From Escherichia phage vB_EcoP_PR_Kaz2018: a DNA stretch of 39,704 bases. The DNA lies in the sequence record MN510331.1; one strand, given 5' to 3'. Numbering within the stretch: the stretch's first letter is position 1; each line of letters opens with the position of its first letter. Made by a program: the position numbers and the translations under genes. The notes beneath the pieces were generated by a model. It saw nothing but the letters and a program-made list of their open reading frames with translations. It made no database searches and was not told where the DNA came from. Of this stretch, positions 5,648 to 15,690 are shown piece by piece.

Positions 5648-5828
5648 ATGTATCAGAACACTATCAACTTCGAGCGCATCCGTGAACGTCAGCAGACTTG
5701 AAGATTACATTCCGAAGGGCCGCAAGCTGAACAAGACTAAGCGGGGCGGAGGTGTCAAAGGCGCTTTCCGTAACGCTGAAGGCAAAGACTCTCTGGTTAA
5801 CCAAGAGAAGTATTTCGTAGGAGCATAA
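5648..5828 (+). CDS. 1.1: Gene 1.1 homolog, apparently interrupted by a +1 frameshift
   Basis: ATG 5648 with AGGAG RBS gives MYQNTINFERIRERQQT then TGA at 5699; the overlapping frame to 5828 encodes ...SRLEDYIPKGRKLNKTKRGGG..., matching the KGRKLNKTKR core I remember in T7 gp1.1. Confidence 0.4.
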
Positions 5829-7229: not shown

Positions 7230-7487
7230 ATGTCTAAGAACTTAATGTTCAACCGTTATTCCAATACCTTCCACCTGTCTCACAACCCGTTCGCTTGCAT
7301 TAAGCGCAACGAGAAGCTGGGATACTTCGGGAAGGCCGTTAAGCTGTCACCTACAGTCTTCGCTCTGATTACTCCCGGCAAAGCTGAAGAGGCTCGCCAG
7401 AAGCGTGAGACCGACGTACCTGTGGTATACACCAAGTGGCCTCGCGTTCGTCTGTTTATTGAGTTCGTGAAGGAGGTGATCTTATGA
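7230..7487 (+). CDS. Hypothetical protein (85 aa); gene 1.6 position
   Basis: ORF track; RBS AAGGAGACTCT upstream; assignment by position only. Confidence 0.7.
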   Translation: MSKNLMFNRYSNTFHLSHNPFACIKRNEKLGYFGKAVKLSPTVFALITPGKAEEARQKRETDVPVVYTKWPRVRLFIEFVKEVIL

Positions 7488-7930
7488 CTACTTATGATAA
7501 TATGATTATCAAGCTAATCGATATGAACGATGGTAATCCAGACCATTTATATAACTGTTCCTTCAATTGTGCTGGAGTTCCTTGTAACATCTGCCCCGCT
7601 AAGGATGATGACGATATGACCTTAGGTGAAATCCGAGCGATGGACCCGCGTAAATCTCATCTGAATAAACTTGAGGTAACTCCTACAGATGACCAGCCTT
7701 CCACTGAATCAATCGAAGGTGTCACTAAGCCTTCCCATTACATGCTGTTCGACGACATTGAGGCTATCGAAGTGATTGCCCGTTCAATGACTCGTGAGCA
7801 GTTCAAAGGGTACTGCTTAGGGAACATCCTTAAGTACCGCCTACGCGCTGGTAAGAAAGTCAGAACTTGCTTACTTAGAGAAAGCCAGGGCGAAAGTTGG
7901 ATTCTATCAGGAGCTGTTCGACCTGCATAA
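7484..7930 (+). CDS. Hypothetical protein with Cys cluster (148 aa); gene 1.7 position
   Basis: ORF track; strong RBS AAGGAGGTGAT; motif CSFNCAGVPCNICP; function not established from sequence. Confidence 0.7.
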   Translation: MTTYDNMIIKLIDMNDGNPDHLYNCSFNCAGVPCNICPAKDDDDMTLGEIRAMDPRKSHLNKLEVTPTDDQPSTESIEGVTKPSHYMLFDDIEAIEVIARSMTREQFKGYCLGNILKYRLRAGKKVRTCLLRESQGESWILSGAVRPA

Positions 7931-7941
7931 AGGTAAGTGCT

Positions 7942-8169
7942 ATGACGCGTGAAGAACTTCAAGCTGCATCGGCGAAGCGTAGAGCGCAAAGATTTTATCG
8001 TGCATACAAGGCGCTGCGTAAGGGTATGTCGATGTTCAAATTAGGACACAGGGAGTATTGTGATAGCGACCTCCTACCGTTTGCTTATAAGAAGACACCT
8101 AGTCTGATTATCAAGGTAGAGGAGTATGAATATTCTGATGACTGTGTTATGGTGAACCGCTATGCTTAA
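7942..8169 (+). CDS. Hypothetical protein (75 aa)
   Basis: Track ORF 7897..8169 starts on TTG; first ATG at 7942 with AAAGG 8 nt upstream. Confidence 0.55.
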   Translation: MTREELQAASAKRRAQRFYRAYKALRKGMSMFKLGHREYCDSDLLPFAYKKTPSLIIKVEEYEYSDDCVMVNRYA

Positions 8170-8266
8170 CGATGTTCTGTACTTCGGCTTAATTTGCGCT
8201 GGAGTAGGCGCGTTACTTCGCTTAATGTATTGGGAGATAGAGGTGGAATATGGTAAAACCAAGTGA
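8162..8266 (+). CDS. Hypothetical small hydrophobic peptide (34 aa)
   Basis: Hand-translated [34 protein letters not shown]; ATG overlaps the preceding stop. Confidence 0.3.
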   Translation: MLNDVLYFGLICAGVGALLRLMYWEIEVEYGKTK

Positions 8267-8348
8267 GTGGTGCCGTGAGATGTATGAGAAGACGCTCAAC
8301 CCGGACTACATCACGTTATACAACCAATGGAAGGAGCGCGGTTTATGA
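8250..8348 (+). CDS. Hypothetical small protein (32 aa)
   Basis: RBS GGAGATAGAGGTGG upstream; stop overlaps the gene 2 start (ATGA). Confidence 0.35.
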
Positions 8349-8503
8349 CTGAGGTTGAAAAGAAATACATCGTGGAGCTTGAGGGACGCGTTCAGTCCTT
8401 CGAGGTTCCGTTGTACGCAAAGTCTCTTGAAGAGGCTACCCTGAAGTCCCAAGAGTATGAGGACGCTGGGTTTGTGGTCGGACGGATTCGTCCTGAGACC
8501 TAA
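8345..8503 (+). CDS. 2: gp2-like inhibitor of host RNA polymerase (52 aa)
   Basis: Hand-translated ...[35 protein letters not shown] matches remembered T7 gp2 ([34 protein letters not shown]); AAGGAG RBS. Confidence 0.85.
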
Positions 8504-8521
8504 ACTATCACTGTAGGACAG
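8499..8521 (+). promoter_or_regulatory. Phage-RNAP promoter (variant CTGTA at -5 to -1)
   Basis: CCTAAACTATCACTGTA-GGACAG, +1 G at 8516; the gene 2 stop TAA is the TAA of the promoter. Confidence 0.7.
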
Positions 8522-8560
8522 ACGTCCAGTTCGTAACTTTTAAATAGGAGATTTACACCG

Positions 8561-8614
8561 ATGGCTAAAGAGCAACTGAAGACTTTCACCACTCCGGTAG
8601 CTGGTATCGTTTGA
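8561..8614 (+). other. Upstream in-frame segment of gene 2.5 ending at an opal codon
   Basis: ATG 8561 with AGGAG RBS encodes MAKEQLKTFTTPVAGIV then TGA at 8612..8614, in frame with the SSB ORF; resembles remembered T7 gp2.5 N-terminus MAKKIFTSALGTAEPYAYIA. Confidence 0.5.
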
Positions 8615-8623
8615 GCCTTACGC

Positions 8624-9259
8624 ATGGCTGACAAAGCAGACACCAAGTTTAATGATCGTGGTGAGCATAAGGTTAACCTGACTTTCGACCTGAGCAACCC
8701 GAAGGTCCGTAAGATGATTGATGTCTTACAGAAGATTCACGACGATGCGTATGCGAAAGCACTCGCAGACCACGAGAAGAACCCGCCTCAGGTTCAGCGT
8801 GGCAAGAAGCCTATCGAGCCGCGTGAAGGCGATATGCCGTGGATTGAGAATGGTGATGGTACTGTTACCCTAAAGTTTAAATGCTTTGCGTCTTACCTTA
8901 AAGACGGCAAGTCAGAGCCTATCGTATTACGGTTCTACGACACCGATGCTAAGTTAATCCGTGACGTCCCGAATATTGGCGCTGGCTCAAAGCTGAAGGT
9001 CAAGTTTAAAGTCCTGCCGTTCAAGTGGAACGCTGCGACTGGTGCAAGCGTTAAGCTCCAGCTTGAGTCCTGCCTTCTGGTAGAACTGAAGGAGTGGAAA
9101 GGTGATGGTGCTGGTGGCGATGGTGGCTGGGGCGATGATGAAGACCTCGGTACTGGCTACAAAGCGTCAACCGATGGTGACTTCGGTGACGATGACTTCG
9201 GTGATGATGGTTCCGAAGGTGGTGGCGACTCCAACTCTGGTGGCGACTACGACTTCTAA
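8624..9259 (+). CDS. 2.5: Single-stranded DNA-binding protein with acidic C-terminal tail
   Basis: GDMPW..NGDGT, SKLKVKFKVLPFKWNAATGASVKLQLES and tail ...GGDYDF match T7 gp2.5; the ORF may really begin at 8561 (see findings). Confidence 0.9.
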   Translation: MADKADTKFNDRGEHKVNLTFDLSNPKVRKMIDVLQKIHDDAYAKALADHEKNPPQVQRGKKPIEPREGDMPWIENGDGTVTLKFKCFASYLKDGKSEPIVLRFYDTDAKLIRDVPNIGAGSKLKVKFKVLPFKWNAATGASVKLQLESCLLVELKEWKGDGAGGDGGWGDDEDLGTGYKASTDGDFGDDDFGDDGSEGGGDSNSGGDYDF

Positions 9260-9711
9260 TGGCCCAATGGTCTGCAAAACGGGGGCACTCTGTGGGTGCC
9301 TACCGCTCTGGACTTGAAGCCAAGAACCAGCAGTGGCTGGAACATAACGGCGTCAAAGCGGAGTACGAAAGCCATTATATCAACTATGTGATTCCGGCTT
9401 CCGACCACAAGTACACACCAGATTTTATTCTTCCTAACGGTATTATCGTGGAGACCAAAGGTATCTTCGCAGTGGATGACCGTAAGAAGCATCTTCTGGT
9501 ACGAGAACAGCATCCAGAGTTAGACATCCGGTTCGTGTTCTCAAGTTCCCGCTCCAAGCTATACAAAGGGTCTCCTACCACGTATGGCGCATGGTGCGAA
9601 AAGAACGGCTTTAAGTATGCCGATAAATTCATCCCTGTTGAGTGGCTGCGAGAGGCGACTGTACGTCTGCCCTCAGGTATACTCATCCCGAAGAAAGGAG
9701 TTAAGAAATGA
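9259..9711 (+). CDS. 3: Endonuclease I (Holliday-junction resolvase)
   Basis: YVIPASDHKYTPDF, VETKG, DDRKKHLLVREQHPELDIRFVFSSSRSKLYKGSPTTYG match T7 gp3. Confidence 0.95.
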   Translation: MAQWSAKRGHSVGAYRSGLEAKNQQWLEHNGVKAEYESHYINYVIPASDHKYTPDFILPNGIIVETKGIFAVDDRKKHLLVREQHPELDIRFVFSSSRSKLYKGSPTTYGAWCEKNGFKYADKFIPVEWLREATVRLPSGILIPKKGVKK

Positions 9712-10178
9712 GCAAGCAGTTTAAACTGTTAAGTGCTGAGTGTGGCTGGCCTTGTGGGACTATCGTTACCCAGTGTGAGAAGGACCCCCAGCCAGCGATA
9801 GGAATGATTCTAGTTGAGTGCCAGACTCCAGGCACCTACAAACACGGGTCTAAAGGCCACAATACGCAACCTGAGGGAATGTGGGGAGCGTGGGTCTGTA
9901 CTGAACGCCTTGAAGAAATCAAGACAGAAGAGAAACACCAAGTCCTGCCAACTTCGAGCGTACCTCCTGTGACTGTGAAGCGTGAAGTCCTGACCATTGA
10001 TAAAATCCCGGTAGGCTATGCGTTTATCGTCCACGGTAAGCCGGGTGAAGTGTACGTGAAGATTAGTAACTCTCACGTCTTCAACCATAAGTTACTCCAG
10101 ATGCACACCACCGGATGCACACCGCTTCCAACGTCATCTGAACCTCGTAGCTGTAGAGCTGGTGGTGTACAATGGTGA
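9708..10178 (+). CDS. Hypothetical Cys-rich protein (156 aa)
   Basis: ORF track; strong RBS AAAGGAG; start overlaps the gene 3 stop (ATGA); no counterpart in T7 as I recall. Confidence 0.7.
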   Translation: MSKQFKLLSAECGWPCGTIVTQCEKDPQPAIGMILVECQTPGTYKHGSKGHNTQPEGMWGAWVCTERLEEIKTEEKHQVLPTSSVPPVTVKREVLTIDKIPVGYAFIVHGKPGEVYVKISNSHVFNHKLLQMHTTGCTPLPTSSEPRSCRAGGVQW

Positions 10179-10935: not shown

Positions 10936-12856
<1,921 letters not shown>

Positions 12857-12920: not shown

Positions 12921-14936
12921 ATGTTTGACCTTAAGAGTATCTGGGGTTCTGACATCGAGACCAACGGTCTCCTTGATACAGTCTCCCAGTTTCACTGTGG
13001 GGTCCTGATTAACGCCGAGTCGAATGAGACCCTTAAGTATGGGGTAGCTCCGATGGTCGGTATCGTCGGCGGCTTCAAAGAGTATGTTCATAAAGTGGAA
13101 GAGATTGCCGCATCACCTGATGGTATGCTGGTATTCCATAACGGTATCAACTATGACGTCCCGTCTATAGACAAGCTGAAGCGTTTGTACTTTGGGAAAC
13201 GCTTTAACTTCCCGAAACATAAGATGATTGATACCTTGGTGCTGGGACGCTTGATGTATCCAAACATTAAGTTCTCAGACATGGGCGCGGTGAAAGCTGG
13301 TCGTCTGCCACCTAAGATGATGGGACGCCAGTCTCTTGAGGCTTGGGGCTATCGTCTCGGTGAGATGAAAGGTGAGTACAAACACGATTACGTTGCCAAG
13401 TGCAAGGCTGAAGGTATCGAATATAAGGCTGGGGACGAATGGTTGTTCCCGTCTCAGGAGATGCTGGACTATAACGTTCAAGACGTTGTGGTCACACTGG
13501 CGTTGTTCAAGAAGTTCCTGACTGACAAGTATTACTTCCAGTCTGAACAGTTCGCTTTCGACCAGATTTATGCGTTGCGTCTGGAACATGATGCTGCGTG
13601 GACCTGTGCGAAGATGGAGCGTAACGGCTATCCGATGAACACCGAGATGGTCGAAGGCTTATATCGTGAACTCACTGTCAAACGTGCAGAGTTGCTGGAC
13701 AAGCTGCGTTCGACTTTCGGTAGCTGGTACGCACCAAAGGGAGGCAAGGAGTTCTTCAGGCATCCACGGACAGGTAAGGACCTTCCGAAGTATCCGAGGG
13801 TCGTGTATCCTAAGGTCGGTGGCATCTTTAAGAAGCCGAAGAACAAAGCTCAACGCTTATGTCTTGAACCTTGTGAACGCGATACGCGAGACACGATGGA
13901 AGGAGCACCATTCACGCCAATCACTTACGTTGAGTTTAATCCGGGAAGCGGAGACCACTTAGCGAAAGTCCTGATGGAGCGTGGCTGGGAGCCTGTTGAC
14001 TTCACTGACACCGGGAAACCTGTAGTCGATGACGAGACGTTGGAACACGTTAAGTTACCAGACGCAGAGGCTCAGGCTTGCGTAGAGCTGGTCCGTGAGT
14101 ATCTGGTAGTCCAGAAGCGCATCGGACAGGCTGCTGAAGGTAAGAACGCATGGTTGAAACTTGTAGGTCCAGACGGACGTATGCACGGTTCAATCAACCC
14201 TTGTGGAGCAGTAACCGGACGTGCGACCCATAGTTCACCAAACATGGCTCAGGTCCCGGCTAACGGTGCTCCGTATGGTGAGACTTGCCGTGGTGCTTTC
14301 GGTGCAGCGTGGAACAAGAAGGATGGCAAGCCAGACCCTTGGATTCAAGTAGGTGTGGATGCTTCAGGTCTTGAGCTTCGTTGTCTGGGGAACCGTGCGT
14401 CTCCGTTCGATGGTGGCGAATACGCGAAGACTGTGGTCGAAGGTGACATCCACTGGGCCAATGCGGTCAACGCAGGGTTAGCACCTAACGTCCCACGCGA
14501 TAAGTCTAACCACGACCATGAGGCTTTCCGCAACAACGCCAAGACGTTCATCTATGCGTTCCTGTATGGTGCAGGGGCCGCTAAGATTGGACTGATAGTT
14601 GGCGGTGGTAAGAAGGAAGGTTCAGCTCTCATGAAGAAATTCATTGAGGGTACACCAGCCATCAAGGACCTCAGGGAAGCTGTGAGTAATACGTTAATAT
14701 CAGACTCTAAGTGGGTGGACGGAGAGAACATCGTCAAGTGGAAACGCCGTTGGCTGCGTGGACTTGATGGTCGTCGTATCCACATCCGGTCCCCGCACTC
14801 AGCACTTAACGCCCTACTTCAGGGTGACGGTGCGGTGGTCTGTAAGCACTGGATAGTCGAGACCGAGCGTATGCTTGAAGAAGCTGGCTATGTCCACGGC
14901 TGGGAAGGTGACTTTGCGTACATGGCTTGGGTTCAT
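12921..14936 (+). CDS. 5: DNA polymerase, exon 1 (672 codons)
   Basis: Colinear with T7 gp5 from the 3'-5' exonuclease domain to ...GDFAYMAWVH; the ORF then hits TAA where T7 continues DEIQ... Confidence 0.95.
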
Positions 14937-15534
14937 TAACATCATGGTGCACATTAAATCTGGTGAACTCGGTGAACTCCTAATGGGACAATACCGAGCC
15001 AAGCCATAGGGAGGATGTATGAGAGGCAAGAAGTTAATTCTTGAGGCCACTGAGACTGGCTGCATAATCCCTACGTCACATAAATTGAATCAGGATGGAT
15101 ACTTCCGAAAGAGGACTAACGGTGTCCTTGAGATGTATCATAGAACTGTATGGATTAAAGCTAATGGTCCAATACCTGAAGGTTTCGAAGTAGACCACAA
15201 GTGTCGTAATAGAGCTTGTTGCAACGTCGAACATCTACAAGTATTAGACCGTGACTCACACTTAGTCAAGACCAACCAAGAGCGATACGCTGCTAGGAAG
15301 CTAGAAGCACGAGACTACTGGGTAGAGACTGGGTGTACAGGAACGAAGTTAGCCGAAGTATTCAATGTGTCGTTCTCAGCCGCCTGTGGGTGGATTAGAG
15401 AGTGGAAGGCGTAGAGACTATCCGAAAGGAGTAGGGCCGTGGGTGAGATTCCCACGTAACCCGAAGCGCCAGACAGTCACCTCAAAGACTGATGATATAG
15501 TCCGACACTTCCAGTAATGGGAGAATACAGAAAG
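14937..15534 (+). mobile_element. Group I intron in the DNA polymerase gene, containing an HNH endonuclease ORF
   Basis: 5' exon ends in U (14936) and intron ends in G (15534); candidate guide sequence GUGAAC (14963..14968 or 14972..14977) pairs with exon GUUCAU with a U-G wobble; flanking exons rejoin in frame. Confidence 0.8.
15019..15414 (+). CDS. HNH homing endonuclease encoded within the intron
   Basis: Motif EVDHKCRNRACCNVEHLQVLDRDSH is a His-Asn-His metal-finger signature; RBS GGGAGG upstream. Confidence 0.85.
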   Translation: MRGKKLILEATETGCIIPTSHKLNQDGYFRKRTNGVLEMYHRTVWIKANGPIPEGFEVDHKCRNRACCNVEHLQVLDRDSHLVKTNQERYAARKLEARDYWVETGCTGTKLAEVFNVSFSAACGWIREWKA

Positions 15535-15690
15535 GATGAGCTGCAAATTGCGTGTCGTACTCAGGAGATTGCCGAAGAAGTCGTCAAGATTGCTCAACTT
15601 GCTATGCGTAAGGTGGGCGAGTTCTATAACTTTAAATGCGTCCTTGACACCGAAGGGAAGATTGGACCAACGTGGAAGGAGTGCCACTAA
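15535..15690 (+). CDS. 5: DNA polymerase, exon 2 (51 codons plus stop)
   Basis: Hand-translated DELQIACRTQEIAEEVVKIAQLAMRKVGEFYNFKCVLDTEGKIGPTWKECH matches the remembered T7 gp5 C-terminus. Confidence 0.85.
   Translation, partial: DELQIACRTQEIAEEVVKIAQLAMRKVGEFYNFKCVLDTEGKIGPTWKECH

Follow-up and report, generated by a model that had tools for sequence, protein, structure and literature searches.

The in-frame stop codon in gene 2.5 of phage vB_EcoP_PR_Kaz2018 is very probably an artefact inherited from a K1F reference record

The gene encoding the ssDNA-binding protein (SSB) of Escherichia phage vB_EcoP_PR_Kaz2018 appears, in the deposited sequence (MN510331.1; the whole record of 39,704 nt is referred to here as the window), to be interrupted by a TGA codon shortly after its start. 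This raises the question of whether the phage reads through the stop, restarts translation beyond it, has lost the beginning of the protein or does not carry the stop at all. The AGGAG Shine–Dalgarno sequence of the gene lies 10 nt 5′ of ATG 8561, and codons 1–17 translate as MAKEQLKTFTTPVAGIV. Codon 18 is TGA, codons 19–21 read ALR, and the ATG at 8624 then begins an ORF of 211 aa that ends at 9259; the span from 8561 to 9259 amounts to 233 codons, stop counted. Neither AGGAG nor GGAG was found upstream of ATG 8624. The main features had been described in a first-pass annotation of the DNA, whose literal statements on the ribosome-binding site (RBS), both ATG codons, the TGA and the length of the span were confirmed, and which offered UGA readthrough, termination–reinitiation, a nonsense mutation or a base-call error as possible explanations. 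Our comparison with related phages indicates that the TGA is very probably a sequence or assembly artefact inherited from the K1F record DQ111067, and that gene 2.5 is a normal, uninterrupted gene of 232 codons starting at ATG 8561. The features of the locus are collected in Table 1.

Table 1. Features of the gene 2.5 locus, and positions of the single-base indels found only in DQ111067, in window coordinates
Feature	Position	Strand	Remarks
Gene 2.5, T7-type ssDNA-binding and annealing protein	8561..9259	+	232 codons plus stop once corrected (minus one T, plus one A)
TTT run with one probably spurious T	8610..8612	+	TT in K1F AM084414, in three complete relatives and in all fetched canonical-segment relatives (G-TTGAG)
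Apparent in-frame TGA	8612..8614	+	Bases straddle the probable true codons GTT (Val17) and GAG (Glu18)
Out-of-frame stretch between the two indels	8613..8630	+	+1 frame reads EPYAWL, matching T7 EPYAYI
GAC, one A short; original frame regained	8630..8632	+	GAAC or TAAC in the compared relatives
Truncated ORF of 211 aa, gp2.5 as annotated in DQ111067	8624..9259	+	First domain strand absent
Shine–Dalgarno AGGAG of gene 2.5	8546..8550	+	TAGGAGATTTAC before the ATG in almost all of 24 IMG/VR relatives
Phage-promoter-like AACTATCACTGTAGGACAGA	8503..8522	+	Upstream of gene 2.5; 2 window matches at <=3 mismatches versus 0.01 expected
DQ111067-only indels	2243 (+T), 2257 (-A), 5698 (+T), 7856 (+A), 8610 (+T), 8631 (-A), 10111 (+C), 12631 (+G), 15898 (+T)		

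Alignment of the locus resolved the interruption into two single-base indels. Where the window and DQ111067 read GTTTGAG, the K1F sequence AM084414 and phage Mt1B1_P3 read GTTGAG, which places one extra T within 8610–8612; where the window and DQ111067 read GCTGACAAAG (GCTG-ACAAAG), AM084414 and Mt1B1_P3 read GCTGAACAAAG, which places one missing A at 8631. The extra T and the missing A sit 20 bases apart, and as a +1/-1 pair they leave the stretch between them out of frame. The TGA consists of the last T of GTT and the first two bases of GAG. Codons 18–23 of the zero frame accordingly read as a stop followed by ALRMA, which differs from the conserved reading, while the +1 frame of the same stretch translates as FEPYAWL and thereby encodes the conserved residues. 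Across the site, the canonical 35-mer is GGTATCGTTGAGCCTTACGCATGGCTGAACAAAGC and the deposited 35-mer is GGTATCGTTTGAGCCTTACGCATGGCTGACAAAGC; the substitutions beside the indels (GGTATCG, GACCTGAGCAAC) are the same as the Mt1B1_P3 variants. With both indels corrected, the gene encodes a continuous protein of 232 aa that begins MAKEQLKTFTTPVAGIVEPYAWLNKADTKFNDRGEHKVNLTF... and contains ...GIVEPYAWLNKADTKF....

A simple nonsense substitution (TGG to TGA or similar) was rejected, as the alignment shows two indels and no substitution, and relatives lack the stop. The base-call error proposed in the first-pass annotation was the closest of its four explanations, although the lesion is a compensating pair of indels and not a substitution in codon 18.

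The corrected protein is, on the evidence of its sequence, an ordinary orthologue of the ssDNA-binding and annealing protein gp2.5 of T7. Its match to the Pfam family PF21265 (SBB_T7, OB-fold) scored 243 bits (cut-off 27) and spanned profile positions 2–169 of 169, whereas the 211 aa ORF as deposited is matched from profile position 12 onwards, so that positions 1–11, EPYAW included, are lost. The T7 gp2.5 structure 1JE5 (1JE5_A) was matched over residues 7–203 with an E value of 8.9e-54, and in this alignment GIVEPYAWLNKAD faces T7 GTAEPYAYIAKPD. The T7 protein ends in ...DGDF. The corrected protein likewise has an acidic C-terminal tail with an aromatic last residue, ...GDDDFGDDGSEGGGDSNSGGDYDF (...DYDF), and shares with T7 gp2.5 the length of 232 aa and the EPYA(W/Y) N-terminal strand. 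The gene lies between gene 2 (host RNA polymerase inhibitor, 8345–8503) and gene 3 (endonuclease I, 9259–9711).

The relatives support the same start and the same length. The gene 2.5 region is 95–97% identical at the DNA level to about 220 Kayfunavirus genomes (K1F-like, T7 supergroup). All 24 IMG/VR relatives carry an uninterrupted ORF of 230–234 aa with the same RBS and ATG, reading MAKEQLKTFTTPVAGIVEPYAWLNKADTKFN and ...GIVEPYAWLNKADTKF... or close variants of these; the sequence before the ATG is AAGGAGATTTAT in place of TAGGAGATTTAC in the two most divergent of the 24. Among the 57 fetched loci with the canonical segment, a set in which some contigs were fetched twice, 52 of 52 complete ORFs measured 225–240 aa. 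The 24 nt segment has seven variable columns; read in the VEPYAWLN frame, five of them are third codon positions, and the remaining two make up one Ala/Ser codon change. Together with the Pfam and 1JE5 matches, the ORFs sharing this start bear out the proposal that ATG 8561 and its RBS mark the true beginning of an SSB of the gp2.5 type of roughly 232 aa.

The closest comparisons are with K1F itself, for which two independent sequences exist. In AM084414 the gene 2.5 ORF is intact: its gp2.5 (CAJ29357, 8559..9257) agrees with the window in RBS, start, first 17 codons, downstream sequence and position between genes 2 and 3, as does gp2.5 of Mt1B1_P3, Vec13, SH3 and other Kayfunavirus phages. 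What separates the window from all of these is the extra T and the missing A, which break its ORF; once corrected, the window gp2.5 differs from those of its relatives by ordinary substitutions only, for example N-D-R-G versus N-E-R-G. In DQ111067, and in its RefSeq copy NC_007456, gp2.5 has the coordinates of the window, the same two indels and the same truncated ORF of 211 aa (AAZ72976, 8624..9259). The window and DQ111067 nevertheless differ by 12 substitutions within 8450–8750, and at these positions the window states match other relatives.

Over the whole genome, 7 substitutions and 9 single-base indels separate DQ111067 from AM084414. At all nine indel sites (Table 1), AM084414 agrees with those of Mt1B1_P3, Vec13 and PhiNW-B1 that align there, and DQ111067 differs from them. 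Every one of the nine duplicates or deletes a base adjoining an identical base. The genes affected are 0.38, 1.15, 1.7, 2.5, 3.2, the C-terminus of 4, and 5.5, and the annotations of the two records differ accordingly. We infer that these indels are base-calling errors of the 2005 record rather than mutations of the phage stock, since such a burden, with gene 2.5 and the helicase C-terminus among its targets, would hardly be expected in a viable phage.

The indels at 2243 and 2257, a +T and a -A separated by 14 nt, likewise compensate each other and show the signature of the gene 2.5 pair; they lie inside gene 0.38, which is annotated at 2208–2468 in AM084414 and has no annotation in DQ111067. 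The insertions at 5698, 7856, 10111, 12631 and 15898 are uncompensated, shift the frame of genes 1.15, 1.7, 3.2, the C-terminus of 4, and 5.5, and were absent from all relatives aligning at each site. Between the two records, gene 1.7 is annotated at 7484–7930 versus 7483–7950, and the primase/helicase gene 4 ends at 12699 versus 12636.

Could DQ111067 instead be a faithful record of its K1F stock? The stock would then have carried a real pair of mutations, with an N-truncated SSB made from ATG 8624 or with a mixed population, and the window would have inherited the pair only through projection onto the reference. A frameshift mutation followed by an intragenic suppressor can yield a compensating +1/-1 pair, and the same record has a second such pair at 2243/2257. 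However, the stop in gene 2.5 falls inside the shifted stretch, so the pair fails to restore the protein. gp2.5 is essential in T7, and the ORF of 211 aa lacks both an RBS and the first 11 positions of the Pfam domain. The seven further indels unique to DQ111067 hit gene 4, gene 1.7 and further genes of which AM084414 has an intact version, a pattern that base-calling error fits better. We consider a mutation of the stock improbable.

The presence of the same lesions in a second genome is explained most readily by the relationship of the window to DQ111067. Both are 39,704 bp long with identical coordinates. An ungapped, position-by-position comparison gave 1,875 mismatches, or 95.28% identity, and no indels or gap openings, whereas three natural relatives compared with DQ111067 showed 1,932–2,085 mismatches, 55–77 gap openings and 12–19 alignment pieces. 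All nine indel states unique to DQ111067 are present in the window; at 12631, the flank is as in Vec13 and PhiNW-B1, and the extra G is as in DQ111067. Given this colinearity and the nine shared indels, what the window shows at its indel sites cannot be counted as independent evidence about the isolate.

The substitutions have a different character. Third codon positions account for 958 of the 1,178 in coding regions, 82% of the changed codons are synonymous, and none of the 1,178 creates a stop codon. Judged by this pattern, the substitutions of the window appear natural in kind and would represent genuine isolate data lying beside reference-derived indels.

The announcement of vB_EcoP_PR_Kaz2018 (MN510331) describes a genome of 39,704 bp with 178 bp terminal repeats and a GC content of 49.8%, which at full (100%) coverage is 95.28% identical to K1F. 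The window agrees with this description: besides the length and identity given above, we measured an exact 178 bp terminal repeat and a GC content of 49.87%. The announcement cites both Genome Detective, which is a reference-based assembly tool, and SPAdes, which it names as the assembler. The length of the RefSeq genome, zero indels at 4.7% substitutions and errors found only in the reference are the marks of reference bias in guided viral assembly (Genome Detective/AGA consensus), and the whole window looks like a reference-projected consensus. The longest stretches that are 100% identical to DQ111067 lie at 14934–15540, 7480–7907, 7934–8358 and 9691–9994. The first is a gene 5 insert of 607 nt with a homing endonuclease, for which no match was found in Mt1B1_P3, Vec13 or PhiNW-B1. 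Such identical stretches are segments that are absent from relatives or only 70–93% identical there, as would be expected of fill-in from the reference. They may come from the reference and not from the isolate, or else be a shared mobile element.

We therefore propose the following history for the two indels in gene 2.5. Both the extra T and the missing A would have arisen in the 2005 K1F record DQ111067. The vB_EcoP_PR_Kaz2018 genome would then have been built in the coordinates of the K1F reference, which would have carried the errors over, with the real substitutions of the isolate retained and all indel states taken from the reference. The step of transfer was probably a Genome Detective/AGA reference-based consensus; which output file was deposited is not stated in the announcement. 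The two compensating frameshifts would shift 18 nt into the wrong frame and produce a false TGA. The first-pass annotation had named resequencing of the site as a check on the stop; for K1F, AM084414 in effect provides this and reads a sense codon. The isolate itself almost certainly has an unbroken gene 2.5 of 232 codons, that is, the canonical state at both 8610 and 8631, as far as comparative sequence data can indicate.

An alternative to transfer from the reference is that the isolate acquired both indels in its own right, either through true shared ancestry or through recombination with the DQ111067 lineage. The window is indeed K1F-like and has K1F-specific segments. Such a history would have to extend to the seven other indels unique to DQ111067, which the window also shares, and would have to accommodate a divergence of 4.7% over 39.7 kb without one indel private to the window; moreover, AM084414, a sequence of the same phage K1F, has none of the nine. 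Acquisition by the isolate is very unlikely.

The remaining possibility is that the stop is real and is recoded, by UGA readthrough (for example as Trp), by a prfB-like +1 shift at GUU-UGA followed by a -1 shift, or by reinitiation at AUG 8624. A strong RBS and 17 conserved codons precede the TGA, and the sequence GTT TGA G bears a superficial likeness to the prfB shift site, which is CUU UGA C. The likeness to prfB-type +1 shifting or UGA readthrough consists only of a U-rich codon followed by UGA soon after a start with a strong Shine–Dalgarno sequence. Recoding signals are conserved among relatives, whereas here no independent relative has the stop or either indel, and the indel states of the window do not count as independent data. 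In a search of 50,697 phage records, the 45-mer with both indels occurred only in DQ111067 and its copy NC_007456, and the canonical 45-mer in 140 records. The exact double-indel 29-mer had no match in IMG/VR, and a degenerate version had none in metagenome contigs or genome contigs; the matching canonical 29-mer pattern, used as a positive control, was found in 19 IMG/VR and 15 metagenome contigs.

The individual forms of recoding fare no better. Readthrough in the zero frame would give xALRMAD instead of the invariant EPYAWLN, no tRNA or suppressor gene is present to support it or a reassigned code, and TGA is a normal terminator that ends 10 of the 35 annotated genes. A prfB-like +1 shift was rejected as well: beyond the -1 lesion at 8631, the +1 frame departs from the conserved protein (TKQT... 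versus NKADTKF), so that the ribosome would have to make two programmed shifts in succession, one of each sign, to reach the conserved peptide. The site itself is absent from relatives, and its stop results from an indel peculiar to a single database record. Termination–reinitiation giving an N-truncated SSB is not supported either, there being no RBS before ATG 8624, whose equivalent in relatives is out of frame, within GCA TGG. Recoding of the stop is hardly credible. We accord an equally negligible probability to the idea that the isolate or the original K1F stock truly has GTTTGAG...GCTGACAAAG and yet produces a functional SSB, by a +1 shift (GUU-UGA) and then a -1 shift (near CUG-ACA), a double shift that implies the peptide TFTTPVAGIVEPYAWLNK, or by a start at the RBS-less AUG 8624.

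As a probable artefact, the interruption of gene 2.5 has no biological significance, and the value of its recognition is curatorial. The nine presumed single-base indel errors of NC_007456/DQ111067 truncate or alter genes 0.38, 1.15, 1.7, 2.5, 3.2, 4 and 5.5, and at least one later genome apparently built on NC_007456 has all nine. These nine sites will go on being flagged whenever genomes are scanned for recoding, nonsense codons or 'split genes'. Users of the window genome or of NC_007456 as a reference should take AM084414 (NC_007636) or correct the nine positions.

Two further observations concern the surroundings of gene 2.5. The promoter-like AACTATCACTGTAGGACAGA upstream of the gene is invariant in K1F and Mt1B1_P3 and appears to occupy the place expected for the T7 gene 2.5 promoter. 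A second copy with 3 mismatches lies at 2478–2497, upstream of gene 1, and both are probably phage RNA polymerase promoters. At the other end, the stop codon of gene 2.5 overlaps the annotated start of gene 3 (TAATG, 9256–9261). Endonuclease I is annotated from 9259 (150 aa) in the K1F records and from a start 33 nt further 3′ in Mt1B1_P3 and Vec13 (a gene of 420 nt), which is an annotation discrepancy only.
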